Source: Candidatus Micrarchaeota archaeon
GTDB lineage: Archaea; Micrarchaeota; Micrarchaeia; Anstonellales; Bilamarchaeaceae
Assembly: GCA_022627495.1 (NCBI GenBank)
Contig: JAKEGJ010000004.1
Coordinates: forward strand, 622 to 64,621
Reading direction: 5' to 3'
DNA: 64,000 nucleotides
Shown: positions 7,561 to 63,658 of the stretch, one piece after another
How the letters are laid out: every line of letters begins with the position of its first letter
How positions within the stretch are numbered: position 1 is the stretch's first letter
The notes under the pieces: generated by a model
What the model was told of the DNA's origin: nothing
Databases searched by the model: none
Seen by the model: only the letters and a program-made list of their open reading frames with translations
Program-made: the position numbers and the translations under genes

Positions 7561-7627
7561 GCCCGCGCCGGCTACGCATGGCACGCATATATTCATATTT
7601 TTAAATATTTACAATCATAAATATCAT

Positions 7628-7882
7628 ATGGCTTCTGGCCGAACGCGCCTTTTCAAGGCATTGTCCGACGGCACGCGCCTGAAAATCGTGGAAATCCTCC
7701 TAAAGGGCGAGCGGTGCGCATGCGAACTGCCAAAAATGGTCGGGAAAGCCCAGCCCACCGTCTCGCTTCAATTGAAGAAGCTCGTGAAGGCGGGCGTACT
7801 CAAATGCCGCAAAGACGGCGCAAAATCGATTTATCGCGTTAGTGAGCCGAATGTGAAGAAAATGCTGGAGCTGGTTGGATGA
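7628..7882 (+). CDS. arsR: ArsR/SmtB-family transcriptional regulator
   Basis: LFKALSDGTRLKIVEILLKGERCACEL matches the ArsR HTH and metal-site consensus. It is 84 aa and its stop overlaps the next gene's ATG. The upstream palindrome ATATTT-TT-AAATAT is a candidate operator. Confidence 0.8.
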   Translation: MASGRTRLFKALSDGTRLKIVEILLKGERCACELPKMVGKAQPTVSLQLKKLVKAGVLKCRKDGAKSIYRVSEPNVKKMLELVG

Positions 7883-8121
7883 TTATCGAAGTGGTAGGCA
7901 GCGGATGCCGCAAATGCATGGAGCTTGAAAAAAGGGCGAAGGAAGCGGCCATTAAATCCGGCATCAAGGCCGATGTCGTCCATGTTTTCGACGTCTCGCG
8001 CATCATCGAGATGGGCATCGTTTCAACCCCGGCAATCCTGATAAACGGGAAGGTGGCGCTCAGCGGCTCCCTCCCCAACGTCGATGAATTAATCGTCCTA
8101 TTCAGGGAAAAGGCGAACTGA
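7879..8121 (+). CDS. Thioredoxin-fold redox-active disulfide protein (small CxxC protein of ArsR-linked operons)
   Basis: GSGCRKC CxxC motif near the N-terminus, 80 aa, translationally coupled to arsR and to the permease. Confidence 0.65.
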   Translation: MIIEVVGSGCRKCMELEKRAKEAAIKSGIKADVVHVFDVSRIIEMGIVSTPAILINGKVALSGSLPNVDELIVLFREKAN

Positions 8122-9164
8122 TGGACGTCATCGTTCTAATCCTGGCAGGCCTTGCGGCAATACAGGACTACGTACTCGCGCACACGCTCTTCTGCCTCAT
8201 ACCCGCGTTCTTCATCGCCGGTGCCATGGCCGCCCTGATACCCAAGCGGATGCTGCTGCCCTATCTCGGGAAGGATTCGCCAAAGCATGTCGCCTACCCG
8301 ATTGCAGTCGCTAGCGGCCTGCTCCTTGCCGTGTGCTCATGCACGGTCCTGCCGCTTTTTGCAGGCATCAGGAAGGGCGGTGCCGGAATAGGCCCGGCCA
8401 TCGTCTTCCTTTACACCGCCCCTGCGACCAACATAATGGCCATCCTGTACACCGGCAGCCTGATTGGGTGGGACATCGCCCTGGCCAGGATAATCCTCTC
8501 AATAGCGTTTGCGGTCATAATCGGCCTAATCATCTCAAAAATATCCGACCATGGTGCGGAAAAGGAAGGAGCTGACGCATTCGAAAAACATGCAGGCGGG
8601 CCGGATACCAAGCGCCTTTTCCTCCTCTTTGGCGCTCTCCTTGGCATACTGCTTGTCGGAACGAGAATCAGCGAGGACTTCATCAAATACCCGGCTGTCG
8701 CAGGGTTGATAATCCTCACGTTATGGATTTCGTCCAGGTATTTCACCAGGGAAGAGGTAAGCGGCTGGATGGATGAGACCTGGGGCTTTGCTAAGACTAT
8801 AGCTCCGCTTCTTCTCATAGGCGTTTTCGCATCCGGAATAATACGCGAGGTCATGCCCCCAGACCTGATTCCCACGTACATGGGCCAGAACACACTCATT
8901 GCCATGGTAATCCCGGTCCTCTTCGGCATCTTCGTATACTTCCCCACGCTTGTGGAAGTCCCGATGGCGAGGATGTTTTTGGATTTGGGTATGGCCAAGG
9001 GCCCGCTTCTTGCATATATGCTCGCCGACCCGGTCATCTCGCTTCCAAGCATCCTAGTCGTCCGCAAGATAATGGGCAACCGCGACACCGGCATATATGT
9101 ATTGCTGATATTCGTCCTTAGCGTACTCGCCGGCCTTGGCGCGGGGCAAGTGCTTTTTTCCTGA
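8121..9164 (+). CDS. ArsP/DUF318-family permease (putative organoarsenical or metalloid efflux permease)
   Basis: Polytopic membrane protein with a conserved CSC-containing segment (LLAVCSCTVLPLF) like the ArsP TPFcSCS motif. It is in an operon with ArsR and the thioredoxin-like protein. Confidence 0.6.
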   Translation: MDVIVLILAGLAAIQDYVLAHTLFCLIPAFFIAGAMAALIPKRMLLPYLGKDSPKHVAYPIAVASGLLLAVCSCTVLPLFAGIRKGGAGIGPAIVFLYTAPATNIMAILYTGSLIGWDIALARIILSIAFAVIIGLIISKISDHGAEKEGADAFEKHAGGPDTKRLFLLFGALLGILLVGTRISEDFIKYPAVAGLIILTLWISSRYFTREEVSGWMDETWGFAKTIAPLLLIGVFASGIIREVMPPDLIPTYMGQNTLIAMVIPVLFGIFVYFPTLVEVPMARMFLDLGMAKGPLLAYMLADPVISLPSILVVRKIMGNRDTGIYVLLIFVLSVLAGLGAGQVLFS

Positions 9165-9201
9165 GCGAATGGCATAAAAACGCCATGCGGAATATAATCC
9201 C

Positions 9202-9972
9202 GTGAACATATTCGAATCAATACTCCTCGGCCTGATACAGGGCATCACCGAATGGCTCCCGGTCTCCAGCTCCGGCCATCTCGCCCTCGCGCAGCATTTT
9301 TTCAGCATCGAGGCCTCGATAGCGTTCGACATCATACTCCACCTGGGGACCCTGCTTGCAGTCGTAGCATATTACCGCAAGGATATCCTGTCCCTGGCAA
9401 GGGGAATACTGGCACGGGACGCGAAATCAATCCGGCTTGCATTCCTGATTCTGCTGACAGCCATTCCGACCGCGATAATCGGCCTTTCCCTCAGGGACTT
9501 CTTCGAATCCATGTTCGCAAGCCCGCTCTCTGTTGCGCTCGCCTTGGCAATCACGGGCATATTCCTCGTCATCGCGTCGCGGCACAAATCGGGAAACGCG
9601 AAACCCGGAACCCGCTCCGCCCTGCTTATAGGCATCGCCCAGGGAATTGCCGTGGCGCCCGGAATATCGCGGAGCGGCTCAACAATCGGCACGGCTCTGC
9701 TTCTGGGGATAGAAAAGGAGGAGGCCGCACGCTTCTCGTTCCTAGCAGGCGTAATCCCGATACTTGGCGCCGCCATGCTCGAAGGCCGCCATGCCATCGG
9801 TGCGGATGTGGAACTGCTGCCCGTTATCGCAGGATTTCTCAGCGCGGCAGTCGCAGGATACCTTTCAATCGGCCTGCTGATACGTCTGCTGAAAGAGAGC
9901 CGCCTCCAGTGGTTTGGCTACTACTGCCTGGCCCTTTCCGCCCTGATTTTCGGCGCCACGGCGATGATTTGA
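9202..9972 (+). CDS. uppP: Undecaprenyl/dolichyl-diphosphate phosphatase (UppP/BacA family)
   Basis: GITEWLPVSSSGHL signature, 256 aa, 8 TM, GTG start; the frame is closed immediately upstream. Confidence 0.85.
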   Translation: MNIFESILLGLIQGITEWLPVSSSGHLALAQHFFSIEASIAFDIILHLGTLLAVVAYYRKDILSLARGILARDAKSIRLAFLILLTAIPTAIIGLSLRDFFESMFASPLSVALALAITGIFLVIASRHKSGNAKPGTRSALLIGIAQGIAVAPGISRSGSTIGTALLLGIEKEEAARFSFLAGVIPILGAAMLEGRHAIGADVELLPVIAGFLSAAVAGYLSIGLLIRLLKESRLQWFGYYCLALSALIFGATAMI

Positions 9973-14729: not shown

Positions 14730-15503
14730 ATGCCGCCCATTTCTCCCATGGATGAGAGGCTGACCTTCCGGAACGTCGCCGGCGACGCGCTCGCCGCGAT
14801 TCTTAGCGTCCCGCCAAAGCCGAACGGGAAAGGCGTTGTGCTTCTGCATTGCTTCACATGCACAAAGCACCACCGTGTCATGCGCAGCCTCGCCGAATCC
14901 CTCTCCGAGGCCGGATTCTCGGTGCTCAGGTTCGATTTCGGAGGCAACGGCGAGAGCGGCGGGAAGCTTGAGGACGCCACATACTCGAAAATGCTGGATG
15001 AAGTCCGTTCAGCGGTCACGCTCCTGCGCAGCAGGGGGATTGATAAGGTCGGGGTGGCCGGCCATAGCATGGGCGCCATGCTTTCCCTCCTTGCGGCGAG
15101 CGAGGACGAACGCATCAGCGCCGTCGGCTTCATCTCCGGCAGCTCGCAGGCCGCCCGCGTGCGGGAGGTATTCCCCCAGGATGCCATACGGAAGGCGGAA
15201 AAAGAGGGCTCGGCCGAGGCGTTCGTCTATGGCAGGCATATCACGATAAAGCGCGAGTTCCTCCTTGATGTGGAAAAGTTCAACGTCGGCCATGCCGCCG
15301 CGACACTTGGCAGGCCCATCCTGATAGTCCATGGCACCGAAGACGAGGTCATCCCCCCGTTCCATGCGCGGCAGATTTTCGCCTGGGCGTCAGGGAAAAA
15401 GACGCTCGATATGATGGAAGGCGTCGACCATCTTTTCAGGAAGGACGCAGACCTGGCAAAACTCCGCGATACGGTGTGCGCCTGGTTCTGCAGCAACCTG
15501 TAG
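14730..15503 (+). CDS. Alpha/beta-fold hydrolase
   Basis: The nucleophile elbow is GHSMG. Other matches are HCFTC...FDFGGNG and HGTEDEVIP. Trimmed to the ATG (MPPISP). The upstream spacer is AT-rich. Confidence 0.7.
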
Positions 15504-15603
15504 CGTGCGGAACGCAATGCGCCAGCGGGAGCGTGGGAAGCTTTATATTTTTTGTCCGGCTGTTTCCCTTGACAAAACCAGTGACATACGAGAGGTGGAA
15601 ACC

Positions 15604-16023
15604 ATGGATGAACAGGCAGGGCCAACGGATGAACAGGCGAGGACTTCGGATGAGCAGATGAAGACGCCGGAAGAAGGTCCGGACGAGATGGATGCGGAGG
15701 CGCTCCCGATGCACGGGCAGCAGGATCAGCAAGCGCCGCTTAGGGAACGAAGAAGGGATGACAACACGGTCTACGTCGGCAAGAAGGGAACGATGGGCTA
15801 TGTGCTTGCAGTCGTGACGCAGTTCAACAACGGCGCGAACGCAGTTACGGTCAAGGCGAGGGGGAAGCTGATTTCCCGCGCAGTAGACGTTGTCGAGATT
15901 GTCCGCCACAGGTTCATGCCGAATTCGAAAGTGGACAACATCGCAATCTCCACCGAAGAGCTCACATCGGAGGACGGCTCGAAGACCAAGGTCTCTTCGA
16001 TTGAGATAAAGATCCAGAAGTAG
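15604..16023 (+). CDS. albA: Alba (Sso10b) chromatin protein with an acidic/Gln-rich N-terminal extension
   Basis: [51 protein letters not shown] is the Alba core. A TATA box (CTTTATATTTTTT) at about 15540 and a GAGGTGG RBS precede the ATG. The roughly 48-aa N-terminal tail is rich in DEQ. Confidence 0.8.
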
Positions 16024-16033
16024 CCTGGTCCGT

Positions 16034-16654
16034 ATGAAAGGCGTCCTGGACACCAAGGGGATCTTCCTAGCCATTTTATTCGGGGCAGTCCTGCAATTTT
16101 CCGGCGGAACAGGCTACCTGGCCCTTATGCTCGTCTTTTTTTTCCTGGCCATCATCGTCACGAAGTACGAGTATGAGATAAAGAAGGAAATGGGCCTCTA
16201 CGAGCACGAGCGGGGCTGGGAGAACGTTTTGTCGAACGGCCTCCTGCCATCTGCCCTTGCGGCGCTGAGTCCGGCAATCGGCCCCATGCCATTCATCGCC
16301 TCGCTGGCCGCAGTGTCGGCGGACAAATTCGGCTCGGAAATCGGCGTCCTCGACCCCCGCGACCCCCTTTCGATATTCAGCCTGAAGCCGGTCAAGCCCG
16401 GCACAAGCGGCGGCATGAGCATTCTTGGCACTATCGGCTCCCTGGCCGGCGCAACCGCCATCGGCGTGTCGGCGATTTTCCTTTTCGGCCTATCGCCCAC
16501 CCAGGCTTTAATCGTAGGGTTGGTCGGGCTTGCCGGCTCGATAGTGGATACGGCTTTCGGGGTGTTCGAAGAGGGCGGCCTGGGCACCAAGGGGACCACG
16601 AACTTCATATGCTCCCTTGCCGGGGCGGTATTGGGGTATTATTTAATATCCTGA
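16034..16654 (+). CDS. DUF92/TIGR00297-family integral membrane protein
   Basis: Polytopic protein with a GTSGGMS...GSIVDTAFG pattern, 206 aa. Confidence 0.5.
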   Translation: MKGVLDTKGIFLAILFGAVLQFSGGTGYLALMLVFFFLAIIVTKYEYEIKKEMGLYEHERGWENVLSNGLLPSALAALSPAIGPMPFIASLAAVSADKFGSEIGVLDPRDPLSIFSLKPVKPGTSGGMSILGTIGSLAGATAIGVSAIFLFGLSPTQALIVGLVGLAGSIVDTAFGVFEEGGLGTKGTTNFICSLAGAVLGYYLIS

Positions 16655-16702
16655 ACCCATCAAGGGATTCGATTATAACGTTTCAGACCAAGGTGATTTC
16701 AT

Positions 16703-17410
16703 ATGCGTGTTTTCGTACTTGCCGGCGGGGAAGGCACCCGCCTGAGGCCATACACCTACTCGGCGCCTAAGCCGATGCTGATGCTCGGAGGCAAGCCCAT
16801 CCTCCAATACGTCCTTGAAAACCTGAAGAGGGCGGGCTTGAAGGACATCGTGCTCACCGTGGGCTATAAGCATGAGGCGATAACATCCCATTTCGGCGAC
16901 GGCTCCAGGTTCGGAATGAAGATTGAGTACTCTGTCGAAAAAGAGAAGCTCAACACCGCCGGCTCCATCGCCCGCTACAGGGGCAAAGTGAAAGAGACTT
17001 TCGCCGTGGTAATGGGCGACCACCTGACCGACATCGACATGGCGGACATGCACAAAAGCCACAAGAAGAGCGGCGCAATCGCTACCATCGCGCTGTACCA
17101 TGCGAAGACCCCGCTGGAATACGGCGTGGCGAAGGTGGAGGGCGGCAAGGTCGTCGGTTTCGCGGAAAAGCCCCTCCTCGAGCACGACTACAACACCGCG
17201 ATATACTTCTTCGAGCCCGAAATCTTCGATTATATCCGAGAGAAGGAAGACTTCTCCAAGGACGTCTTCCCCCGCCTCCTTGCCGCCAACAAGGCGATAA
17301 ATGCGTATCTTTTCGATGGGGTATGGTTCGACATCGGGCGCGTCAGCGACTACGAGCGGTTCGTGGAGCTCTTCAGCCTGATGCGTTTCATGCGCGAACT
17401 CGAAGGGTAG
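16703..17410 (+). CDS. Sugar-1-phosphate nucleotidyltransferase
   Basis: LAGGEGTRLRPYTYSAPKPML N-terminal signature, 235 aa. Confidence 0.8.
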   Translation: MRVFVLAGGEGTRLRPYTYSAPKPMLMLGGKPILQYVLENLKRAGLKDIVLTVGYKHEAITSHFGDGSRFGMKIEYSVEKEKLNTAGSIARYRGKVKETFAVVMGDHLTDIDMADMHKSHKKSGAIATIALYHAKTPLEYGVAKVEGGKVVGFAEKPLLEHDYNTAIYFFEPEIFDYIREKEDFSKDVFPRLLAANKAINAYLFDGVWFDIGRVSDYERFVELFSLMRFMRELEG

Positions 17411-51689: not shown

Positions 51690-54600
51690 CCCATGATTTT
51701 TAAGGTCATGAGGATTAGACCGTTAGTAACCGCAGGCTGAACAGCTCGGTTTCCCTAGCTGCGTACACCTCGGTCCTATCAAGCGGATCTGCTATCCGCG
51801 GTATATGCCCCCTCGTTTTAAGAGCTACTTCGACCTTAGATGCTTTCAGGTCTTATTAGCCTGGCGCGTGGCTGCCCGGCGGTGCAATTCACAACCGGTC
51901 CACTAGAGGCGCCGAATCCCCGTTCCTCTCGTACTCAAGGATCCTTGCTCTCAAGGGGCAACACTCCCAGGAGATACTACCGTACTGTCTCGCGACGTAC
52001 TGAACCCAGCTCATGTGGGATTTTAATGGATGAACAACCCAACCCTTGGCCGCTCCTACACGGCCAGGATATCCCAAGCCGACAGCGATGTACCAAACCG
52101 CGGGGTCGATATGTACGCGAGTAGTTCGCGTTATTTGTGAAACGACAGAACTACATCGCAGTGTACTCTCACCCGCGACGAGCCTGTTACCTCCAGGGTA
52201 GCTTGTCTGACAGCTTGAATCCTCATCAAAGGGATTTCAAGGTTCGTTATACCCGACTTTCGTCTCTGCATTCTACGCTTTTAAGAATACAGTCAGCCCA
52301 GCATTTGTTATTAACCCTCTACTTCCGATTTCTGACCGGAATGAGCTGAGCATTGGGCGCCCTTGTTTCCTTATCGAGGGCGTACCGCCCCAGCCAAACT
52401 ATCCACCTGACGCTGTTCTCTTGCGAGTAAGCAATACAAAATCTACATAGTGGTGTAACACTTTCGCCTATACGTACCCCGGGAGGCACGTCATAACGGC
52501 TCCCACTTACGCTTGGAAGCAAACTTCGTATCACAACATCAGGCTATAGTAAAGCTCCATGGAGTCTTCGTTTCCCTCTGGGAGATGCCGGCGTCTTCAC
52601 CGGCAGGTGATTTCACTAGGTCCTAAGTAGGGACAGTGGAAGTGTCGTTACGTCATTCATGCAAGCCGCCAATTAAGCGGCGAGGTATTACGCTACCTTA
52701 AGAGGGTCAGAGTTACCCCCGCTCTTTACCAGCCCTTCCCCCGGTTGAACCCGGTTTTCAGGTACTAGCAGTGAGCAGACGTCAACCAGCATACTCACCG
52801 TTTCCGGTCTGCGCTGATCTGTGTTTTTGGTAAACAGTCGCACTTCCCTTGTTACTGAGACCACAGCATTACTCATGCTATGGCACCCCTTCTTCCTAAG
52901 TTACAGGGCTAACTTGCCGAGTTCCCTTACCTAGGTTGTCCTACCACACCTTAGCCTTTTCAGCTATGGCACCTGTACTAGTTCTGGGTACGATTATAGA
53001 GGGTCGTTCCACTCTCCTTTTCATGGGCCCCTGGACTCAATCGAGTTGCCCCTACGGGTTTTATCCGCTTCTCCTCACAATGAGACTCCGCAGATTTACT
53101 CCCTTCAGACGTCCGCAGACGTTCGACTTATCCAAACGCGTCAGAGAAATGGCTCGCCTTTCGGCAGCCTACCTCTATAGGACCGGAATATTAACCGGTT
53201 TCCCTAATTTCGGATTTCAGGATTTACCATCATCCTTAGGATCGCCTAACCCTCAGCTGAAGAACGTGGCTGAGGAATCCTTGCCATTTAAGGTGTCCGG
53301 AATTCTCGTCCGGATACGCTGCTACTTACATCAGGATATTCATAACAGGCCGCTCCATAAGACGTCACCGCCTTACTTCCAGGCAACCCGTTCGCCCCCT
53401 TACTCACGTGCTTTTGGCACTGGTGAGGTATCGGAAGCTGGCTTAGCCCCGTGAATTTTAAGAGTCTGCACTCATAGACCGGTCCGCTATTACGCGTTGT
53501 TTGAAGGATGGCTGCTTCTAAGCCTACCTCCCGGTTGTTTTCGAATAGAGACTCCTTTCAGATTAACACTTAGCCAGCATTTAGGGCCCTTAACCTCACG
53601 TACGGTCGTTCCCGTAAGGGACGTCAGACTTACTCCGGCGCCCCGACTGCCTCCTTCTACACGGACGTAGCATTCGGAGTTTGAGAGGATGGCGACACCT
53701 TTCGATGCCAATCCACCCAATCGGTGCTCTACCGCTACGTCTCGCTCCAGAGACGCTGTCCTGAGGGACATTTCAGAGGGAACCCGCTATCGCCGAGTTC
53801 GACAGGACTATCACCCCTACACCCAGGTCACCTAAGGGGAATATACCACCAATAGTTGCGGGCCTCCATCATTCGTCAGAATGACTTCACCCTGCCCAGG
53901 CGTAGATCACTTCGGCTTCGGGTCTACCCAGAGTGACTGATCGCGAATTACCACGACATCCCTCGCACCTTGCGGTGTTGCGGATTCTCGCTTTCGCTTC
54001 GACTCTCGTCTCGCCACGCCAAATAACTCCCTGACTCTTGCTTCGAGAAGAAAGACTAGACACTGCTAATACATGTCGGTTCCCAAGTTGCCCAGGGAAC
54101 CTTCCACATACTTAAGCTTCCATGCCATAGTCATTCTGTAACCACATAGTTTCAGGTTCTTTTCACACTGCTCCCGCAGTGCTTTTCAGCATTCGCTCGC
54201 GCTACTGATTCGCTATCGGTCTTGCGCCTCATATTTAGATTTGGAGGTTGATACCCCCATGTTCATGTCCGCTATCCGGCGGGCACTACTCTTCACGGAT
54301 CGTTCCTTTTTCCTTTGCCTACGAGACTGTTACTCGCTATGGTACCGCATTCCATCGGACTTCGGCTCGGTTAAAGGATACTCCCCACCACATCTGCCGC
54401 CCTGTTACCAGGACGGAATTCGGTTTGATCTGACCGGCTTTCTCTCGCTGATACTAACCGGATCTCGTTGATTTCTTTTCCACCCTCTACTAAGATGCTT
54501 CATTTCGAGGGGTTGCTGCGCATTACTGCGCACACTCAAACCTCCGGATCAAAGACTGCGTGCGTCTACCCGGAGCGTTTCGCCGCTTGCCGCGTGAGTT

Positions 54601-54690
54601 TGCGGGCACAAGCCAAGCCATCCACTAAGTGGCGTGTAGCAACATATGACTTTATTGAAATCATGCTTAGTCGGCCTTCCCTTGCGGAAA
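51690..54690 (-). rRNA. rrl: 23S ribosomal RNA (large-subunit rRNA), unlinked from 16S
   Basis: The reverse complement near 54690 reads CGACUAAGCAUG...GCCACUUAGUGGAUGGCUUGGC, a 23S 5' end. The reverse complement near 51830 carries the 3' domain CUGAAAGCAUCUAAGGUCGAAG. The GGGAACCCAGCUCAC-like sarcin/ricin-region sequence is present at about 52000. Flanks at 51640..51680 and 54715..54745 are mutually complementary (GUGACGGCAAGA vs UCUUGCCGUCAC), giving a processing stem. Length is about 3.0 kb and no intron is evident. Confidence 0.85.
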
Positions 54691-55191: not shown

Positions 55192-56290
55192 ATAGCTTAG
55201 GACAAAATTAAATATACTTTTAAGAATCCATCGCCTCAAATAGAATTGAGGTGAACACATGGGTTGGAACCTGCCAAAAGGAGAAGACTTTCTCCCAACT
55301 ATCTCTTTGAGGGCGTTGAGAAGCTTGTATGACGAGGAAAAGTCATACAAGGCGAAAAGCCGCCTACTTGTCGCTCTCAAAAGAAAAGAGGGGGAATCCA
55401 TGGATTCCATTGCAAGTCAGCTTGAAATGAAGCGGATAACCGTGAATATTACCCTCCATCGTTTTCAGGAAAGGGGCATTCCTGCAAAAGACGATGAGAA
55501 ACGAAGCGGCAGACCAAAAGAATTGACCGGAGATCAGCTCAAAATCCTAAGAAAAGAATTGCTGAAGGGACCAAGAAAGAGGCAGAATCCCCTTTGGACA
55601 ACAAAGATGGTCATGAACCATGTGGAAAAGAGATACGGCAAGAAATATACGGCCAGGCACATGCGCAGGCTTCTTCACCTGCTTGGATTTTCTGTCCAGA
55701 AGCCAAGGCCCAGACATTACAAGACGGACATTGCCAAGCAGGAGCATTTTAAAAAAACGTCAGGAAAACCCTCGGGAAATATCGAAAACGGGGCTTCTCA
55801 ATATTTTGTCTGGACGAGAGCCTCATCACCATAAGGCCATTCCTGGCACGCGGCTGGGCTTTGAGAGGAAGCAAGCCGGTTGCGATAATCAGGCATACTC
55901 GTGACTACTTTTACGTGATGCTGGCAAGATCAAGAAGGAAAATTTATGCAGCGTTCTACAACACCGTGAATCAGAACAAAATAATCCGCTTTCTCAAAGG
56001 CTTGCTGAAGCATCACCCAAGACTGGCGGTGCTTTTGGATAGTGGACCTGGGCACAAAGGCCCGCTCCTCAGGGCATTCTTGAGAAGGAATGGAAAATGC
56101 CTCAGGCTCATCTATTCCCCAACGCACAGCCCAGAGTTGAATCCCGTTGAGCAGTGCAACAAGGAAATCAAGAAGCCATTACACAACAGGTATTTCAGAA
56201 CCGTGCCTGCCATGCGACAGGCAGTTCATACGTTCATAAAGCGTGACCTTCTGATGCCCAAAATGTTTACATACTTATGTCCCTAGCTAT
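55192..56290 (+). mobile_element. IS630-family insertion sequence (about 1.1 kb) flanked by a TA target-site duplication
   Basis: The terminal inverted repeats are ATAGCTTAGGACA at the left end (55192) and TGTCCCTAGCTAT at the right end (56290). Each is flanked by TA (55190-91 and 56291-92). Size and TA duplication are typical of IS630/Tc1-mariner elements. Confidence 0.7.
55259..56286 (+). CDS. IS630-family transposase (HTH plus DDE_3), two frames joined by a -1 frameshift at an A7 run
   Basis: Frame 1 (55259..55834) carries HTH-like regions. Frame -1 (open through to 56286) carries the DDE domain with LDESLITIRP and the hallmark SPELNPVEQCNKEIKK. The two frames overlap at CATTTTAAAAAAACG (about 55745..55760), a classic slippery heptamer; a pseudogene cannot be excluded. 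Confidence 0.7.
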
Positions 56291-56773
56291 TACTCCGAGG
56301 CATTGCTTACAAACAGTCAGGTTCAATCTTTCATATTTCGTAAAAGTGGCGTGATTGTCTATGAACGTGTACCTGATTGTGTCTGTTAAAACCCGATCCG
56401 GCCATTTAGAGGTAGTGAATGTGACCGTCGTATAATCCCTCTTGGGGACATAAACAACATCATCGTAATCGAAAGGGTAATCCCCGCCATAGTTCTTTAC
56501 GATGTACTTGAAATAAACCCTGACGGTAAGCGGGTAGTTATAATTATTGAAAACTTTGTAGCTTATAGTCAAGGCTCCCTTATCGACATTGAAATCCCTA
56601 ATGTCAATTTGACTTGTAATGAATTTTCCTGTTTCGTTTGAATATACGTTTTGAACCTCATCATCAGACAAGATTTGTTCCGTATACTGGCATGTTAGGT
56701 TTTCCGCATAAACCGTTGTGAAAATCAGTGCAAAAAGGAGAAAATGAAACTTTATTGTTTTCAACTTCGCCAT
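56267..56773 (-). CDS. Hypothetical secreted protein (low-GC, probably foreign)
   Basis: Signal peptide MAKLKTIKFHFLLFALIFTTVYA, N/Y/T-rich, about 35% GC. Its last 8 codons and stop lie inside the IS630 right end. Confidence 0.4.
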   Translation of the reverse strand: MAKLKTIKFHFLLFALIFTTVYAENLTCQYTEQILSDDEVQNVYSNETGKFITSQIDIRDFNVDKGALTISYKVFNNYNYPLTVRVYFKYIVKNYGGDYPFDYDDVVYVPKRDYTTVTFTTSKWPDRVLTDTIRYTFIDNHATFTKYERLNLTVCKQCLGVIARDISM

Positions 56774-57039
56774 TGAATCGTAAATGCATGGGCGGTTAAT
56801 CATATAAATATGGCGTGCCCCTCGGATAACCTCGGATTATCATTTCCATCCAAGACTAGTCCCGGCCATCACTTCCTCTCAAGGATGAAAAAGTAATGGG
56901 ACTCATCCCCGACAAGCATTTCTCCCTAATTTTCCTGAATTTTTTCTCCATCAACGCCCTGACCATTTTCAATGAAAAAACGCCCCGTCCAATCCCCCAG
57001 AAATGTTAGCCCCAAAGGATGGTCTATTCTGATGCTAGA

Positions 57040-57723
57040 CTAGTAATCCAGCAGCGTCCCCTTCGTCGTTTTCTTCTCTAAAAGGTCCTTGGAGTCGTTC
57101 CTGGCCGAGTTGACCTTGGGCGAAACCTCGTACATGTCCATCTCATCAGCCGGATACGGGCTGAGGAACGCTTTAACTTCGCCAGGGTCGGCTTTGAGAT
57201 AGTCCTTCTCCGTGCCCCTATCCAGTATCACCGGCATGCGGTTGTGGATGCGGGCAATCTGGTTGTTCGCTTCAGTCGTAATCATGCAGCAGGTGCGGGC
57301 CGGAGCCTCCTCCGGGTCTTTCATCTCATCCCCTTCCTTGGGCACTGCGTAAATGCCTGCGAATGCGAACACGCCGCTGTTTTTCAGGAAAATCCGGTAT
57401 GGCGTCTTCTTCGGATGCGCCCACTCATAGAACGAGTCGGCAAGCATCAGACAGCGTCGTAATTCGAAATCCTTCCGGAATGACGATTTCTTATCAACGG
57501 ATTCCGCCCGCGCGTTGAAAAGAGGATGCCGCGCACCGCTCCAGTTGGCCGGCATGCCCCATTTAGCGAAGGAAAGCGTATCCGGGGCGTCGTTGAACAC
57601 CACCGGCACCTCCTGCGTGGGCGCGATGTTGTAGCGCGGCTTCAGCTTCGGCACCTCTTTTAGGCCGAAGCGTGCGGCTATCGCTTTCGAATCAGTCATG
57701 GCAAGCGCATATCTTAGGCACAT
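57040..57723 (-). CDS. SOS-response-associated peptidase (SRAP/YedK/HMCES family) abasic-site processing protein
   Basis: The N-terminal catalytic MCLRYAL (family MCGRF/Y) is present, and SFYEWAHPKKTPYRIF with the conserved E and H, 227 aa. Confidence 0.75.
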   Translation of the reverse strand: MCLRYALAMTDSKAIAARFGLKEVPKLKPRYNIAPTQEVPVVFNDAPDTLSFAKWGMPANWSGARHPLFNARAESVDKKSSFRKDFELRRCLMLADSFYEWAHPKKTPYRIFLKNSGVFAFAGIYAVPKEGDEMKDPEEAPARTCCMITTEANNQIARIHNRMPVILDRGTEKDYLKADPGEVKAFLSPYPADEMDMYEVSPKVNSARNDSKDLLEKKTTKGTLLDY

Positions 57724-57728
57724 AGAAT

Positions 57729-58703
57729 CTAACTCGGTAGTTTGTCCGTCCCCCGAAGGTGGAAGGCGATGTTGAAACCTACGAATTCATTGGAGAACCT
57801 GTCCTCATAGACCGGGAACCGCTTCAAAAAATCCTGCAAATCAATGTATTCCTTAATCAGAACGTCCGCCTTATCAGTGCGAGTGAATTCGAAGCCTGTG
57901 ACCGAGGCTCCGATGTCCGCGGAATTGATAACCGCATTGGCGAACCCATCCACGATGCGGGGGTCCTTGACATCATATCTCTTGTCGAAGCCGGTTCCGT
58001 CGAACCGCTCAAGCCTGAACCTCACGTTCATGTCCTTTTTGATTTTCACCTTCTCCGCAGGGTCAGTGACGAGTTTGCCGTTCACTATGACCTCCCCGTC
58101 GGTTTTCTCCACCTCGTCCATCAATTTCCGCATGTCTTCGAAATCTGCGCCGCTCCTTGATTGGGAGCCCATCCGTGTCTCCACCCTGATTCCAATTGCG
58201 CTAAGTATGCTGGAGAGGAATCCTTTCTTCTGGGGGCCCACGTAGGTCGTCGTGCTTTGGGTGCTCCGATAAACCGAATTGTCCGTGACCTCGAGCTCCG
58301 AGGACGCGTTGGCGCTTCCGAATGGGGAATTCATGGACAGGCTGGACCGTTTGTCCGCGATGCCCTGCTCAATCAGCTCATCCAGCATGAGCATCGAGAA
58401 CCTGAAGAGGTCCGCTCCCCCAAGCCGCTGTGCCACTGCCTTCTCATCCGCCGGCTTATCGTCCGGAAGGGCCGTATCAAGCACGAACCGCTCGAACCGG
58501 AGGAGTGCGGGCTTTCCCACACGGACGAACTTCCGATGCGGGACAAGCTGGACATGGCCGGCAACCACAAGCTGCACGAAAGTAGCGAATATTTCCTTAT
58601 AATCGACCTTATTATCGACAATCAGGCCTGCGATGGCTGGTTTTAGCACTTTGCTTTTTTCCGCCATCTTCTTCCTGATTCTGGCGATATCCCCCTCAAT
58701 CAT
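57729..58703 (-). CDS. Hypothetical protein (in the polymerase cassette)
   Basis: 324 aa with strong GC3. It is 18 bp downstream of the PolB-like gene and 5 bp upstream of the SRAP gene. No known motif. Confidence 0.45.
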   Translation of the reverse strand: MIEGDIARIRKKMAEKSKVLKPAIAGLIVDNKVDYKEIFATFVQLVVAGHVQLVPHRKFVRVGKPALLRFERFVLDTALPDDKPADEKAVAQRLGGADLFRFSMLMLDELIEQGIADKRSSLSMNSPFGSANASSELEVTDNSVYRSTQSTTTYVGPQKKGFLSSILSAIGIRVETRMGSQSRSGADFEDMRKLMDEVEKTDGEVIVNGKLVTDPAEKVKIKKDMNVRFRLERFDGTGFDKRYDVKDPRIVDGFANAVINSADIGASVTGFEFTRTDKADVLIKEYIDLQDFLKRFPVYEDRFSNEFVGFNIAFHLRGTDKLPS

Positions 58704-58721
58704 GGCTAATACCTCTCGTTT

Positions 58722-60530
58722 CTAGGATATATTGCTTGCTATTTCCCATCTGGCCCGCTCAAGGAGGCGAAGATACTCCTGCGCGTCGATTTCCTCCAAT
58801 CTGGCAAGCTCGACCCGGCGAGGGCCGTAAACCGTATGCACGAAATCAACCGACTTCCTGCCGTCTGGCTTCTCCCGGTAGGCGATGACGTGCGCCTGCT
58901 CGGTCTTGTACTCGCGCTGGCGCATGCGCTTGTGGATGGAAAGGTCATCAAGCGCCAGCTTCTTCGACAGGAGAAGCTCCTTGTGCCTGGCGTAGACCTG
59001 CCGAAATGAGGCGAAATCGCCGGAAAAGTATGCGGGAATGGCCTCCTCCTGGTATCTCTTGAGGAATTCCGGGGCGTCGGAGTGGCGGAGCGCAATTCCC
59101 CGCGCCTCAATCTTCCCGTCCGCAGTGATTCCAAAATACCGATTAGCCGCCCCTGAGCCGTCATAGGAAGGCAAAAACTTGATTTTCGAGAATACACAGT
59201 CCAAAACCAGCTCGATTCCGGTCTCGTCCGAAACCCGGGATGCAAAACCATCGAATTTTTGGTTTGGTTCGCTCGAACTCGCACTCGGGTCCGAAACAAA
59301 TACAGAATCGACAATCCCGTACAGGACATCCAGGCCCTCTTCCTCGGCAATCGCCTTCGTCCTTTCCAGTATCACCCGCCCCATCAGCATAACGCATTCC
59401 TTGCACTCGACATTCGAGAAAACGAAATTGTTGTAGCCGAGATATCCGAAACAGCAGACCAGAATCCCCTTCAAGGCCTTCTGCCGGGCGTCCAGGTCTG
59501 CGCTGAACCCTTCCTCGCGAATCCTATGCTTCAGTTCCAGCCGCCGAAGCAGCACGGCTTCGATGCCATCTGGAATTATGCCTCTTTTTTTACAGACGCG
59601 CCATCCGCAGACTGGGAGGATTTCGTCGTTTCCGCACTCGCAGTGCATGGTTTCCGGGCTGATGTTGTGCCTGACAATCACGTGCGGATACATGCTGGAG
59701 AAATCGCACTTCCCGACGTTAGAATAGACGCCGGGCCTGGGATAGAATATCGTCCCACCTCTATCCATCCTCCGGAGCATCTCCAGGGTTTTGGGTTTTT
59801 CCATTTCTTTCTTTTTGTCCGGAATCAGATAGCCCCGTGCTTTGGCGGCCCTCATATGCAGGAACGTATTCAGCTTTCCTGGCGTGACCCTGCACACCAC
59901 GTCCGGCTTCACACCGGTAAGCCGCGACAGTTCCATCACCCGCGCAAGGCGCGTGTCCCCTCCGTCATCCCCGTAGACGTCATAGTGTCCGCTCTCATCC
60001 AAATCAATGTGCACGGCATGCCGAAGAAAGCAGCCCATCTTCGAAACAAGCACGCCAGGGTATTTTTTTAGATAACTGTCCCCGCCATGGGTGAATACTA
60101 CGTCAGCATCCGGAATCCCATCCCCCTCCCGCATCCGGGCAATTCGCAACCCGCCTTCCGGTTCGAAGAACCGCAAGCCCTTCTCAAGGGCAAACCGATA
60201 GTGGTGTGGAATCGTCACTTCAGTCGTCTCCCCAAGACGGGAGACATCCAAAGCAACCCGCCTGAACCCGGAACACGGAACAAACACCCTCACCACCCGC
60301 TCCCGCTCGCATGCATGGATTTGGGGGTATTTTTCCTCAAGCGAACAGCGCGAAACCAAAGGATGTTTTTCCACGACATCGAGCGCGTAGTCAGGTTCGG
60401 GAGTGATGAGATAGAACGATGGGACGTATTCCGAGACGGTTTCGTTGGGTTGGTTGTTTTGCGAGCGGGGATAAACGAGGCGCATCTTGTCGCCCTCATG
60501 GATGATATTCACTAGCGCCCGCGCCTCCAT
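58722..60530 (-). CDS. Family-B DNA polymerase lacking the N-terminal and 3'-5' exonuclease domains (PolB2/Dpo2-like)
   Basis: Polymerase motifs are present: pre-A LARVMELSRLTGVKPDVVCRVTPGKLNTFLHMRAAKARGYLIP (compare Pfu LARLYELSKLTG...[22 protein letters not shown]), motif A CDFSSMYPHVI (DxxSLYPSII), motif B KALKGILVCCFGYLGY (KxxxNSxYG) and motif C YGIVDSVFV (YGDTDS with the first Asp replaced by Ile). No Exo I/II/III motifs occur in the roughly 190-aa N-terminal region. 602 aa. Confidence 0.7.
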   Translation of the reverse strand: MEARALVNIIHEGDKMRLVYPRSQNNQPNETVSEYVPSFYLITPEPDYALDVVEKHPLVSRCSLEEKYPQIHACERERVVRVFVPCSGFRRVALDVSRLGETTEVTIPHHYRFALEKGLRFFEPEGGLRIARMREGDGIPDADVVFTHGGDSYLKKYPGVLVSKMGCFLRHAVHIDLDESGHYDVYGDDGGDTRLARVMELSRLTGVKPDVVCRVTPGKLNTFLHMRAAKARGYLIPDKKKEMEKPKTLEMLRRMDRGGTIFYPRPGVYSNVGKCDFSSMYPHVIVRHNISPETMHCECGNDEILPVCGWRVCKKRGIIPDGIEAVLLRRLELKHRIREEGFSADLDARQKALKGILVCCFGYLGYNNFVFSNVECKECVMLMGRVILERTKAIAEEEGLDVLYGIVDSVFVSDPSASSSEPNQKFDGFASRVSDETGIELVLDCVFSKIKFLPSYDGSGAANRYFGITADGKIEARGIALRHSDAPEFLKRYQEEAIPAYFSGDFASFRQVYARHKELLLSKKLALDDLSIHKRMRQREYKTEQAHVIAYREKPDGRKSVDFVHTVYGPRRVELARLEEIDAQEYLRLLERARWEIASNIS

Positions 60531-61130
60531 CTAGAGCCACCCGGAAAGGCGATACTGCCGGTCGCGGGGATACCTGAATACCGGGTCAGGAAGGCACGGA
60601 TGCTTCAGCACCTGCACGACGACATCCCGCGAAACGCCCACATCGATTATCACGGACGAGACCTGAGAAAGGTATTCGTGCAGATGCCCCACCCGCCGCT
60701 CCAGAATCACGCCTGTGGCCCGCTTCCGTATGCAGAGCTGGACGAACTTGCCGATTGCGTGCGTAATGCCTTGGGTGTTGTCAACATAGAGGTCCGAAAG
60801 CGAATCCAGCACAATCAGCTTGTACTCGCCCGGAACGTCCCAGTTCGCGGCCACATCGTTGTTGTCTCTAGTGAACGCCCGAAGCACATGCACGTTTTGC
60901 ATCGCCATCCGCGCATCAGCCCCGCAAACGCGCACAAACCGCTCGTAATCGAAGCTCCAGTACCTCTCATGGTAGTCGGACCACTGCAAATACAGCACGC
61001 CATCAGTCGCGTTCCTGGCCAGGAGGCGCCAAACGAGTTCAGAGAGCCAAACCGAATCGGCGCACCGGAGCGTGATAATCGCGTCAGTGCACAGAAGGGA
61101 GTCAAAGACGCGATTGCCCGTCCTTATCAT
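60531..61130 (-). CDS. RecA-superfamily fold protein without a Walker A P-loop (ImuA-like or degenerate KaiC/RadB-like)
   Basis: A Walker-B-like hhhhDSLS (KLIVLDSLSDLY) and a following ITHAIGKFVQLCIRKRATGVILE segment match RecA/KaiC topology. No GxxxxGK[ST] is present. It is 199 aa and sits immediately upstream of, and adjacent to, the PolB-like gene. Confidence 0.4.
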   Translation of the reverse strand: MIRTGNRVFDSLLCTDAIITLRCADSVWLSELVWRLLARNATDGVLYLQWSDYHERYWSFDYERFVRVCGADARMAMQNVHVLRAFTRDNNDVAANWDVPGEYKLIVLDSLSDLYVDNTQGITHAIGKFVQLCIRKRATGVILERRVGHLHEYLSQVSSVIIDVGVSRDVVVQVLKHPCLPDPVFRYPRDRQYRLSGWL

Positions 61131-61365
61131 TTTTCCCCTCCAGATGAACGAGCATCGCGAGCAGCATGGCTATGGCTATGTCGTCTTCGTCCGCGGCGTC
61201 TATGGCGGTCCTTCTTTCCCTTACGATTGCCAGAAGCCGGAGGAGCGCCTCCTTCTCCCGCCGGTCCAGGTGCGCCGAGAAATTCTTCCACCGCGACAGC
61301 CTCTCTTCGAGCCGGAAGCTCACCGAGGGGATTGTCCGTCCCATGAATACAGCCCCAGCGCCCAT
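61102..61365 (-). CDS. Small hypothetical protein, first gene of the polymerase cassette
   Basis: 87 aa with plausible composition. It overlaps the start of the downstream gene by 29 nt. A 13-bp inverted repeat lies just upstream. Confidence 0.3.
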   Translation of the reverse strand: MGAGAVFMGRTIPSVSFRLEERLSRWKNFSAHLDRREKEALLRLLAIVRERRTAIDAADEDDIAIAMLLAMLVHLEGKNDKDGQSRL

Positions 61366-61687
61366 ACGAATAGCTCATTCCCAAGTGGGCGTGATGCCTT
61401 TTTGCGTGCACCCGCCACTTGGGAATTGATGACCGAATGAGAACGGGCTCTTCGGTCGGCTACATTGTTCATATCATCGCCTCTCGGGGCGGAACGCGCA
61501 ATCCGGCAAATAAAGCGTTGCGGGGCTCACCGCGTTTCCGCGGGCATGCCTTACAGCTAATATCGCATCCGCATCCTCGCATGGCTGTGCAAAGCCACAG
61601 CCCCGCCCGGTAAATCCTTATTAATCGAATATTTTCCGCATCCTCGTGGTGCATCCGAACTGAAAAATATCGAAAAGGCGGTGTGGA

Positions 61688-62041
61688 ATGGAACAAATCA
61701 CGGATCCGCGTTCGTTTCAGGGCCTGCTTAGGCAGAAAGAGCGCATAATCGTTTTCCGGAAGCACGCGCTCCAGCAAGCCAGGCTCCGGAATCTTGCCGT
61801 GGAAGGCGACACCGAGCTGGCGGTATTCCGCGAGGACCTCCTTGGGAAGGAGCCATACCTGGTGGTAGAACAAGCCTCGGAGATTCCAAAGGAAAGGAAA
61901 TTCAAGCTGTATTACCGCTGGCCGGAAGGCGGTTTCATAACCTACGTTGCATCAATCGACGGCCAAATCAGCCTGATAACCGTTTACCGCACAAGCAAGG
62001 CGCTTCAAAAGAAGATATATAAATGGCGGAAGAGAGGTTAA
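61688..62041 (+). CDS. DUF4258-family protein (toxin-like component of a DUF4258/DUF2283 pair)
   Basis: HALQQARLRNL...PYLVVEQ...FKLYYRWPEGGFITYVASIDGQISLITVYR fits the DUF4258 pattern (HAL.RM..R...; LHVV...I.IITVYRP). Confidence 0.55.
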   Translation: MEQITDPRSFQGLLRQKERIIVFRKHALQQARLRNLAVEGDTELAVFREDLLGKEPYLVVEQASEIPKERKFKLYYRWPEGGFITYVASIDGQISLITVYRTSKALQKKIYKWRKRG

Positions 62042-62045
62042 TCAT

Positions 62046-62378
62046 ATGAAGGTGCGATATGCTTATGACCCCGATGCCGATGCGATAAGCATAGCTGTCG
62101 GCAGCCGGAAATCCGATGCCACCATCGAGATGTCCGAGCGCATCCTAATCGATATAACCAACGACTGGAAGCTGGTGGGCATAGAAATCATCGATGCCAG
62201 CGCGGAAATCTCGCGGCTGTTCAACCGGGCGCTAAGCAAGGACGAGATAACGCATCTGCTGTGCGAAGTGCGGGAAGCGCCTGCAGACGAATACCTTGTG
62301 CAATTCAAGACACATCGGAGCGGCGAATCCGCAAACCTGCTAATCCCTCTTTATCGCAGCCCGATTACATGCGTCTAA
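62046..62378 (+). CDS. DUF2283-family protein (antitoxin-like partner)
   Basis: MKVRYAYDPDADAISIAV...ERILIDITNDWKLVGIEIIDAS matches the DUF2283 consensus (YD.E.D.LYI.L...IDID..G.LVGIEIL.AS). It is 4 bp after the DUF4258 gene. Confidence 0.6.
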   Translation: MKVRYAYDPDADAISIAVGSRKSDATIEMSERILIDITNDWKLVGIEIIDASAEISRLFNRALSKDEITHLLCEVREAPADEYLVQFKTHRSGESANLLIPLYRSPITCV

Positions 62379-62617: not shown

Positions 62618-63658
62618 TTAGGCCCAGTCGGATGACGCCAGGAGCGGCTGCGTGATAATGCCGGCCCTGACTGTCGGGTCTTCCGGCCCGATATCCCCGA
62701 GGCCGAAGCGCAGGGCCGGGATTTTCAAAAACAGCGCGGCTCCGGACTGCAGCTCCCTGCGCATCTCATCCATGCTCTGGAAGCGCCGCTCCGGCTCCTT
62801 CTCCAGCGCACGCATGGCAATCTCATCCGCTCTCTGGGGAAGCGATGGGTTCCTGGCGCTTGGCGGGGCGGGATTTTCGAATAATATCTTCCCCATGATC
62901 TGGGCCACCTCGTCACAGTCGATGGGAAGCGCCCCGCAGAGCATCCTGTACATGATTACTCCAACGGCGTATATGTCCGCCCTGTGGTCCGGCCTTATTC
63001 CCTTGAAGGCCTCCGGGGGTAGGTAATGGGGCGTGCCGATGATGTAGCCGTGCCTGGATTCGTGCAATTCCGCCTGCTCCTGGCCCGAGAAGCGGGAAAG
63101 GTCGAAATCGAATATCTTGACCGTTCCGTCCCGAAGTAGGAAAACGTTGTGGGGCTTGACATCCCGATGAATGATGCCCTTATCGTGGAGCGCCCCGAGC
63201 CCCGAGCAAATCTGTGCTAAAATCGGTATCGCATCCGCATACGGGACGGTGCCTTCCTGCGCGATATACCTGTCCAGGTCCATGCCTTCCAGGTATTCCA
63301 TGACGATAAAAGAATCCGCCCCGCAGGTGCCGGCGTCTTTCATGCTGACGACGTTCCGGTGCCTGACCTGGCTAAGGGCCTGTATCTCGCTCGTTATCCT
63401 CTTCGGGCTGACGGACCGGATTGTGTTGCCGTCCCTGATTTTCACCGCGACCGCTTCATTCCTCTTCGTGTCGGTGGCGAGGTAGACTGTGCCCATGCCC
63501 CCCCTGCCCACGATTTTTTCGAGCCGATACTGGCCGTTTACGAGCATGCCTGAGCGGTCGTCATAGTACGTCCGGTCGTGATGGTGCTTCTGGAATTCCC
63601 GCACTGTTCCGGATTTCCCCGGCAGGGCTGGGCCTATGCCTCTCTGCGTCAATTGCAT
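62618..63658 (-). CDS. Hanks-type serine/threonine protein kinase
   Basis: Gly-rich loop GRGGMGTVY, the VAVK Lys, catalytic loop HRDVKPHN, DFD (an FDFDLS variant) and GTPHYLPPE (the APE region). 346 aa. Confidence 0.8.
   Translation of the reverse strand: MQLTQRGIGPALPGKSGTVREFQKHHHDRTYYDDRSGMLVNGQYRLEKIVGRGGMGTVYLATDTKRNEAVAVKIRDGNTIRSVSPKRITSEIQALSQVRHRNVVSMKDAGTCGADSFIVMEYLEGMDLDRYIAQEGTVPYADAIPILAQICSGLGALHDKGIIHRDVKPHNVFLLRDGTVKIFDFDLSRFSGQEQAELHESRHGYIIGTPHYLPPEAFKGIRPDHRADIYAVGVIMYRMLCGALPIDCDEVAQIMGKILFENPAPPSARNPSLPQRADEIAMRALEKEPERRFQSMDEMRRELQSGAALFLKIPALRFGLGDIGPEDPTVRAGIITQPLLASSDWA

Follow-up and report, generated by a model that had tools for sequence, protein, structure and literature searches.

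A probable chromosomal PolB2 mutasome operon with an adjoining SRAP gene in a Candidatus Micrarchaeota archaeon

Five co-oriented genes and their products

We examined a 64,000-nucleotide stretch of DNA from a Candidatus Micrarchaeota archaeon (hereafter the window) and, within it, a cluster of five minus-strand genes that encode a family-B DNA polymerase, PolB2, together with the proteins PPB2, iRadA and SRAP and a further protein of 324 amino acids (aa). In operon order, the open reading frames (ORFs) lie at 61365..61102, 61130..60531, 60530..58722, 58703..57729 and 57723..57040, with products of 87, 199, 602, 324 and 227 aa, and they are tightly packed: an overlap of 29 nucleotides (nt) is followed by gaps of 0, 18 and 5 nt. 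A first-pass annotation made from the letters of the sequence had described a five-gene cassette with tight or overlapping spacing. We found the ORFs where it had placed them, and the way they are laid out and spaced favours one transcription unit for all five. An archaeal 23S ribosomal RNA (rRNA) gene occupies 51704–54649 on the minus strand, 2.4 kb from the operon, and a deposited 'hypothetical protein L0Y65_01240 [Candidatus Micrarchaeota archaeon]' shows 100% identity to the 602-aa product; the locus therefore belongs to the chromosome of a DPANN archaeon. The deposited names of the five genes are 'hypothetical protein' or the generic 'DNA polymerase domain-containing protein', and a Pfam search with the five products left PPB2, iRadA and the 324-aa protein without a significant match. 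On the evidence below, the locus is very probably a chromosomal PolB2 mutasome operon of this archaeon, in the order PPB2–iRadA–PolB2–(DUF2207_C-like insert)–SRAP, with a proposed heteropentameric complex and a proposed role in translesion synthesis (TLS).

The polymerase gene (58722..60530, minus strand) encodes a 602-aa, Dpo2-like family-B enzyme that matches Pfam DNA_pol_B (PF00136) at 5e-24. Its best NCBIfam match, NF004416, scores 258 bits, under the cutoff of that model, and its best matches among solved structures are the PolB3-type KOD and Pfu polymerases (113 bits). Alignment to KOD polymerase places motif A at 276-DFSSMYP, motif B at K354..CFGYLGY and motif C at 404-YGIVDS-409, the last opposite YSDTDG of the KOD enzyme. 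Because the first catalytic Asp of the DxD signature is replaced by Ile, motif C is not intact; the earlier claim that the protein keeps motifs A, B and C thus stands for A and B and fails for C. Most PolB2 proteins have likewise lost this Asp, the form in S. islandicus being IID. The same annotation had reported a polymerase lacking exonuclease motifs, and here our results agree with it. The exonuclease domain PF03104 gave no match in the 602-aa protein at E values up to 0.1, and the N-terminal 196 aa hold no detectable exonuclease motifs. Homology to archaeal PolBs starts only at residues 195–199 (residue 197 corresponds to KOD 329), which indicates that the N-terminal and exonuclease region is shortened by about 130 residues and is no longer recognizable.

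Several features tie this protein to PolB2 as recently described (PMC11791011). Over 240 aa, a stretch that takes in the DKGG and GIVD motifs, it shares 36% identity with a PolB2 sequence from the supplement of that study. Its D(K/R) motif, 256-DR-257, aligns with DKGG of the published protein and lies 150 residues before I406, as against 148 in S. islandicus. Across 23 homologues, D256, G258 and G259 are invariant, as are D276, F277, S279, Y281, P282, K354, F361, G362 and Y363 and the second Asp of motif C, D408. This pattern bears on the suggestion that PolB2 is catalytically dead and that its complex serves a structural or regulatory function in replication or fork processing. The Ile in place of the first DxD Asp and the decayed exonuclease domain speak for such a reading, and an inactive PolB2 was the original interpretation (PMC4104785). 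Nevertheless, Sulfolobus Dpo2, which carries a substitution of the same type (IID), is active and is required for targeted mutagenesis (PMC11791011), and Asp276, motif B and D408 have not varied among the 23 homologues. We therefore regard a dead polymerase as improbable.

The gene before that of the polymerase (60531..61130, minus strand) encodes iRadA, a 199-aa inactive RadA/Rad51-core protein that is identified by profile and predicted fold only. In a search of the PDB with a profile built from 17 homologues, Rad51, RadA and DMC1 chains made up 49 of the 50 matches (best E value 3.7e-6). The AlphaFold2 model has a predicted local distance difference test (pLDDT) score of 80.6, and the top Foldseek matches of that model are all RAD51 or RadA (TM about 0.73, TMq 0.65–0.77, E values down to 8e-10); the model covers about half of the full-length targets (TMt about 0.5). 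By single-sequence searches of the PDB, none of the 199-, 324- and 80-aa proteins of the operon found a match. None of the 199 residues of iRadA forms part of a GxxxxGK[ST] motif, the corresponding strand–loop–helix position being 20-TLRCADSVWLSEL, whereas the hhhhD strand is retained as LIVLDS. The N-terminal helix–hairpin–helix domain is also missing, in keeping with a length of 199 aa against about 320 for RadA. The first-pass annotation had foreseen a RecA-fold protein with a Walker B but no Walker A motif, and both the motif content and the fold, for which it had proposed structure prediction as a check, bear it out. Its likening of this protein to ImuA fared less well: by profile and by Foldseek the matches are to RadA/Rad51, and because the partner is of this type, the comparison with ImuA is one of analogy only.

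iRadA ends in 192-QYRLSGWL-199, a sequence resembling a PCNA box in which Q192, L195 and W198 are invariant among homologues. The pattern Qxx[LM]xx[WF]x closes the protein in 13 of 13 members of the clade of related loci described below. Among the proteins of PolB2 operons, a PCNA box is found preferentially in iRadA, where a subset has a C-terminal clamp-binding motif (PMC11791011), and QYRLSGWL is a candidate PCNA-interaction box that, judging from the literature, would bind PCNA. Outside the clade, the C termini of some iRadA homologues read QLSLF or QQLRLF (L077 and L080; also L068). Both motifs are of the bacterial beta-clamp type, which fits the published account of a change of clamp motif once the operon had passed to bacteria.

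The first gene encodes PPB2 (arCOG07300; Pfam DUF8156). The first-pass annotation had correctly recognized a small gene here, but its 87-aa reading from 61365 is probably an over-extension. MGRT, the highly conserved N-terminal arm of PPB2 (PMC11791011), falls at residues 8–11 of that reading, at a second ATG at 61344. In an alignment of the upstream regions, the first ATG is CTG in four relatives and the MGRT ATG is invariant, and gene callers give the products of relatives 80 aa. For these reasons we favour a start at 61344, which would yield a PPB2 of 80 aa (61102..61344, minus strand) from the conserved start MGRTIPSVSF. A direct Pfam search with the 80-aa protein found no match; precomputed matches to PF26485 (DUF8156) exist for the window product and for the 80-aa products of relatives. 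When the 80-aa protein was used to build an iterated profile from the ORFs that flank PolB2 homologues, 69 ORFs adjacent to PolB2 were gathered, and 57 of them start with MG[RK][TS]. This profile also matches PPB2 sequences printed in the supplement of PMC11791011 at 46.8 and 23.3 bits.

The last gene of the cluster (57040..57723, minus strand) encodes a 227-aa SRAP protein of the YedK/HMCES family of abasic-site proteins, as had been proposed. It matches Pfam PF02586 at 4e-57 (193.5 bits against a cutoff of 27.1). Aligned to the YedK and HMCES structures, its active-site residues are all in place: Cys2 (in MC(2)LRY), the Asn of NAR, the Glu of FYEW and the His of HNRMP. SRAP is therefore predicted to be active. 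The same check of catalytic residues was repeated on all SRAP copies in the survey described below.

Between the genes for PolB2 and SRAP lies that of a soluble, 324-aa DUF2207_C-like protein (57729..58703, minus strand). About 115 aa at its N terminus and about 55 aa at its C terminus are conserved, with a variable polar middle between them. A distant relationship to DUF2207_C is supported by profile search; the match to PF20990 itself scores 15.6 bits, under the cutoff of 33. The DUF2207 membrane proteins have transmembrane segments, whereas no hydrophobic segment was found in the 324-aa protein (maximum KD19 value 1.38, against more than 2.2 in DUF2207_C relatives). Its structural model is of low confidence (pLDDT 62), with GOLPH3/Vps74 as the top fold match, and any likeness to that fold stays as tentative as the model.

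A word-indexed search found seven homologues of this gene. In L011 and L004, copies with 94% and 84% identity follow PolB2. In L013 and L015, whose PolB2 proteins are 86–87% identical to that of the window, and in the more distant L017, the gene is missing and SRAP directly follows PolB2. A 58%-identical homologue lies near a kinase gene and a 35%-identical one between genes for a glutamate dehydrogenase and a PP2C-like protein, both with no PolB2 nearby. The 324-aa gene, which the first-pass annotation had counted as a member of the cassette, is thus a lineage-specific, variable passenger between PolB2 and SRAP and not a component of the module. In the more distant relative that holds the 58%-identical homologue (L008, 41–2992), about 1 kb separates this gene from a homologue of a Ser/Thr kinase (66%), and no PolB2 operon intervenes; in the window, by contrast, the Ser/Thr kinase gene (62618–63658) and the 324-aa gene flank the operon.

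Conservation of the operon and of its SRAP neighbour

To place the operon among its relatives, we used a survey of 80 metagenome loci that were collected by means of an alignment of 23 PolB2 homologues and annotated with iterated profiles; a scan of genome contigs with the single PolB2 protein added three close relatives. Over the 95 sources searched, we found 69 PPB2-like and 57 iRadA-like reading frames, with few exceptions immediately upstream of the gene for the polymerase, and nearly all loci with enough flanking DNA have both genes there. In the window, too, PolB2 is neighboured by PPB2 and iRadA, which is a feature of membership in the PolB2 group. Where PolB2 shares at least 38% identity with the window protein, the gene order is PPB2–iRadA–PolB2, whereas most other loci have iRadA–PPB2–PolB2. 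An intact DxD in motif C was seen in none of the 79 readable survey sequences, which instead have IVD (37), LTD (34), VVD (4), IID (2), MTD (1) or ITD (1).

SRAP adjoins the operon in 7 of the 10 informative loci of this Micrarchaeota-type clade, down to PolB2 identities of 38–47%, and in the window, L011, L013, L015 and L017 it is co-oriented with the operon. The synteny with SRAP is therefore not peculiar to one genome, and the co-occurrence of RecA-like and SRAP genes with PolB2, for which the first-pass annotation had suggested a neighbourhood survey, does recur. The association is also on record: SRAP was counted in 134 of 1,823 polB2 neighbourhoods, an enrichment (PMC11791011, Supplementary Table S1), and it has been known since 2013 to lie beside mutagenic polymerase operons in bacteria (PMC3765255).

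A number of results weigh against the identification and against a fixed place for SRAP in it. Compared pairwise with their Sulfolobales counterparts, neither the window iRadA (E value 0.025) nor, by BLAST, the window PPB2 (E value 0.24) gave a significant similarity, and a profile comparison with the Sulfolobales forms of these two proteins given in PMC11791011 was likewise not significant, with a weak score for iRadA. Because these matches are not significant, membership in the PolB2–iRadA–PPB2 family rests on profiles, fold, motifs and synteny. As for SRAP, the gene is convergent in L016 and divergent in L019, so that co-transcription is not universal; it is absent near the operon in three loci of the clade (L020–L022), and outside the clade it is adjacent in only 2 of about 66 loci (L041 and L059). 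Given these absences in the clade and in nearly all loci outside it, SRAP is not obligatory. Its linkage to the operon is conserved and enriched in the clade, and it is not universal. In L059, whose locus consists of two parts (6708–9308 and 14914–16840), the PolB2 gene lies about 5.6 kb from an SRAP–iRadA–PPB2 cluster on the opposite strand; in this split arrangement, SRAP stays with the accessory genes and not with the polymerase.

The same distribution decides how far SRAP, and possibly the 324-aa protein, should be seen as an extra subunit or obligate partner of a four- or five-component mutasome specific to Micrarchaeota, that is, as a new variant of the system. The contrast between 7 of 10 informative clade loci and 2 of about 66 others, the shared strand in five of these loci and the gaps of 5–18 nt in the window, which imply co-translation from one messenger RNA, favour that view. 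It is nevertheless unlikely, given the convergent, divergent and missing SRAP genes of L016, L019 and L020–L022. Moreover, SRAP neighbours many unrelated bacterial mutagenic polymerase operons with no sign of a stable complex (PMC3765255), and the 324-aa gene is lacking in L013, L015 and L017 and has distant homologues away from PolB2. The preferred reading of the locus, a PolB2 mutasome operon with SRAP attached, draws on gene identities, motifs, folds, synteny and spacing, all of which are established by this analysis.

The upstream region and the flanks

Upstream of the operon, alignment of the window with four relatives (L012, L013, L014 and L004) revealed three invariant elements on the minus strand. 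The first is a promoter-like block, CCCGCGGAAACGCGG, at 61543..61529 (the CCCGCGGAAAC block, or CCCGCGGAAAC(G)). About 13 nt past it lies a TATA-like CTTTATTT at 61515..61508, and an invariant ATGAACAATG follows at 61472..61463; the flanks of the invariant columns diverge. The interval 61508..61543 is promoter-like, and from its sequence we infer a promoter function, with the CCCGCGGAAAC block as a candidate regulator site. A more distant locus (L016, PolB2 47% identical) has a similar arrangement, CGCGGAAAT...CCCCGCAA...AATTATT, also read as CGCGGAAATCCGC...CCCCGCAA...AATTATT. A further site in the window, at 61633–61639, was noted with the CCCGCGGAAAC block. We also considered the 7-mer GCGGAAA as a damage-response operator like the ANTTTC of Sulfolobales, and rejected it: the sequence does not fit ANTTTC, and with 30 occurrences in the window against 18 expected, the 7-mer is too common there for any specific claim, which leaves it as no more than a phylogenetic-footprint lead.

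The first-pass annotation had pointed to a 13-bp perfect inverted repeat just upstream of the operon as a candidate operator or structured leader. The exact arms are only 12 nt long, ATTCCCAAGTGG and CCACTTGGGAAT at 61377–61388 and 61415–61426, and beyond them a bulge is needed to lengthen the stem; the right arm had been misread, being given as CGCCCACTTGGGA where the actual sequence is CCGCCACTTGGGA. Taken alone, the pair of 12-mers is not strongly beyond chance, because 5 of 100 shuffles gave at least two matches. The repeat forms the second of two hairpins in an 87-nt, strain-specific insertion in the 5' leader (61376..61462, minus strand), which folds at −43 kcal/mol (z = −7.0). In the alignment with the four relatives, this insertion lies exactly between the invariant ATGAACAATG and the conserved leader, and it is absent at exactly this point from L012, L013, L014 and L004. 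No copy was found in 94 other loci and no second copy within the window, and the insertion has no Rfam match. Two more records of this strain (L095 and L096) also carry it, so it is not an assembly artefact. An origin as a miniature inverted-repeat transposable element is unsupported, there being no second copy in the window or in the 94 other loci.

Could the inverted repeat (61377–61426) nonetheless be an operator or a regulatory leader structure of the operon? It stands between the TATA-like box and the PPB2 start codon, 32 nt before the latter; its hairpin is very stable, and in this strain the hairpin could affect translation or messenger RNA stability. Yet the four relatives do without the insertion although their leader and promoter are otherwise conserved, there is no counterpart in the 94 loci and no Rfam family, and the system is evidently regulated elsewhere with no such hairpin. 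Because it sits inside an insertion found only in this strain, the repeat is not the conserved operator of the system, and we give very little credence to a regulatory role for it.

The ATGAACAATG block also begins a short upstream ORF, MNN-ELFVWALGLYSWDGQSPR*, which has 21 codons in relatives and overlaps the PPB2 start out of frame. In the window (61320–61472, minus strand), the 87-nt insertion adds exactly 29 in-frame codons and gives a 50-aa ORF. We considered this upstream ORF (MNNELFVWALGLYSWDGQSPR) as a coding element and set it aside: by hand translation, 5 of the 14 residues after MNN differ in L004, which makes a conserved peptide doubtful. Many of the differences in L004 are non-synonymous, and the conservation may be at the level of RNA or DNA rather than of the peptide.

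At the other end of the operon, a run of six T residues (56975..56980, minus strand) lies about 60 nt past the SRAP stop codon. As read from the sequence, it is a plausible end of the transcription unit and a putative terminator. The next minus-strand ORF begins 236 nt past the SRAP stop codon (56267–56803, 178 aa), with a G+C content of 0.384 as against 0.54–0.59 for the operon genes and 0.556 for the window. It has a hydrophobic N terminus and no family match, and in L013 a relative with 31% identity is encoded upstream of the operon; the product may be a foreign or secreted protein.

Beyond these genes, an IS630-type transposase gene (55259–56286, plus strand) separates the rRNA gene from the operon. 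It comes as two ORFs, a helix–turn–helix part of 191 aa and a DDE_3-like part of 141 aa, and is either a frameshifted remnant or a case of programmed frameshifting. On the upstream side of the operon, a divergent pair of genes (61688–62378, plus strand) encodes a 117-aa protein of unknown family and a DUF2283 protein (110 aa). The pair is 88% identical in L011 (5377–6064) and is probably a toxin–antitoxin-like module; other toxin–antitoxin pairs (PIN with ribbon–helix–helix, PemK, VapB) crowd the flanks of the operon in relatives. The 23S rRNA gene is complete, and the 64-kb window has no 16S, 5S or transfer RNA gene. The rRNA genes of this archaeon are therefore unlinked. Positions 1–2000 of the window have a G+C content of 0.42, against about 0.56 elsewhere.

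The transposase remnant and the toxin–antitoxin-like pairs nearby are what might suggest that the cluster belongs to a mobile element, such as a casposon, a pipolin or a provirus, that carries its own family-B polymerase. This is extremely unlikely. The window PolB2 is devoid of the exonuclease and protein-priming features of mobile-element PolBs, and no integrase, Cas1 or terminal repeats were found at the cluster. The operon, 2.4 kb from the 23S rRNA gene, has the same G+C content and the same G+C at third codon positions (GC3) as neighbouring genes, and the flanking kinase gene and DUF2283 pair are syntenic in relatives.

Relation to known polymerase complexes and proposed role

An operon of PolB2, an inactive RadA and arCOG07300 was predicted and described in 2014 (Makarova et al., PMC4104785). 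In 2025, PolB2, iRadA and three copies of PPB2, the new name of the small helical protein arCOG07300, were modelled as a heteropentameric mutasome, PolB2–iRadA–(PPB2)3, that was likened to Pol V, and polB2 genes were reported to be tightly linked to those of PPB2 and iRadA (Timinskas, Timinskas, Venclovas, PMC11791011). PPB2 proteins are small (about 80–100 aa), with a three-helix fold that forms a trimer, and the 40 published complexes have interface scores (ipTM) of 0.8–0.9. In Sulfolobales, Dpo2 is a damage-inducible TLS extender (PMC8764526 and PMC7390963, cited in PMC11791011), and inducible, error-prone extension of this kind is known for that enzyme only. The first-pass annotation had read the cassette as an error-prone TLS or mutasome-like module; an exonuclease-less PolB2 with an inactive RecA-family partner and a small protein, and SRAP alongside, agrees with that reading. 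Its further claim of a previously undescribed archaeal damage-tolerance system does not hold, the operon having been published in 2014 and the mutasome model and SRAP enrichment in 2025. The locus is an ordinary example of the published archaeal PolB2 mutasome operon with SRAP attached.

The likeness to the published operon extends to detail. In both, the three gene families are adjacent on one strand, the polymerase has the D(K/R)GG motif, iRadA carries a PCNA box and SRAP is reported nearby; both also have IVD rather than DxD in motif C, a decayed exonuclease, a P-loop-less RadA core without its N-terminal domain, and the MGRT arm. The differences lie in order and in additions. The published order is iRadA–PPB2–PolB2 in the main group and PPB2–PolB2–iRadA in Sulfolobales, as compared with PPB2–iRadA–PolB2 in the window. 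In the clade of the window SRAP is tightly appended, and in its sub-lineage an inserted DUF2207_C-like gene separates PolB2 from SRAP.

Two bacterial systems follow a related logic. The ImuA–ImuB–DnaE2 cassette likewise joins an error-prone polymerase to an inactive RecA-superfamily partner and an accessory protein, and SRAP is often near it (PMC3765255). By contrast, the window polymerase is of family B and not C, its partner is of the RadA/Rad51 type and not ImuA/SulA-like, and ImuB is lacking: a Pfam search found no Y-family or DnaE homologue in the cluster. E. coli Pol V (UmuD'2C–RecA–ATP) is similarly a multisubunit TLS enzyme with a RecA-family subunit and a small oligomer whose N-terminal arm contacts the polymerase (PMC11791011). 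Its catalytic subunit, however, belongs to the Y family, and it borrows the active cellular RecA, whereas the RecA-family subunit encoded in the window is a dedicated, inactive paralogue. The small subunit of Pol V is a dimer, and that of the PolB2 complex would, according to the published models, be a trimer.

By analogy with Sulfolobus Dpo2 and with the AlphaFold models already published, a heteropentamer would arise from single copies of PolB2 and iRadA and a trimer of PPB2. Here the ATPase-dead iRadA would dock on a motif of the proofreading-dead PolB2 (motif C IVD) that resembles the RadA oligomerization motif (beta-alpha), and one MGRT arm of the PPB2 trimer would insert between PolB2 and iRadA. 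Through its C-terminal QYRLSGWL box, iRadA would hold the complex on PCNA, and the complex would extend mismatched or lesion-opposed primer termini in TLS, like Dpo2, and SRAP would protect abasic (AP) sites within single-stranded DNA at the same forks. For assembly of the complex, binding to PCNA, catalysis, induction by damage and any hand-off between SRAP and PolB2, we draw on the literature.

A bolder proposal is that, in the Micrarchaeota-type clade, SRAP has become a fourth component, transcribed together with the PolB2 mutasome genes and functionally coupled to that complex, with the GOLPH3-like DUF2207_C derivative perhaps acting as an adaptor in one sub-lineage. SRAP may, on this proposal, cross-link AP sites that lie in single-stranded DNA where forks have stalled and hand the site to a PCNA-tethered PolB2. 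We consider functional coupling of this kind speculative and rather unlikely, and a physical interaction of SRAP with the mutasome complex doubtful to much the same degree.

In conclusion, genes that were deposited under generic names can now be named as PPB2, iRadA, PolB2, a DUF2207_C-like protein and SRAP. The findings support the published model of a PCNA-tethered PolB2 mutasome operating alongside abasic-site protection, and they do not extend it in kind. What they add for the clade is the PPB2–iRadA–PolB2 order, a C-terminal box resembling a PCNA-interacting peptide in every clade iRadA, and a tight SRAP linkage, with the concentration of SRAP adjacency in the Micrarchaeota-type DPANN clade as a modest new detail. 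If the coupling of SRAP to the complex were physical, the operon would offer an archaeal handle on how the shielding of AP sites is coordinated with error-prone extension.

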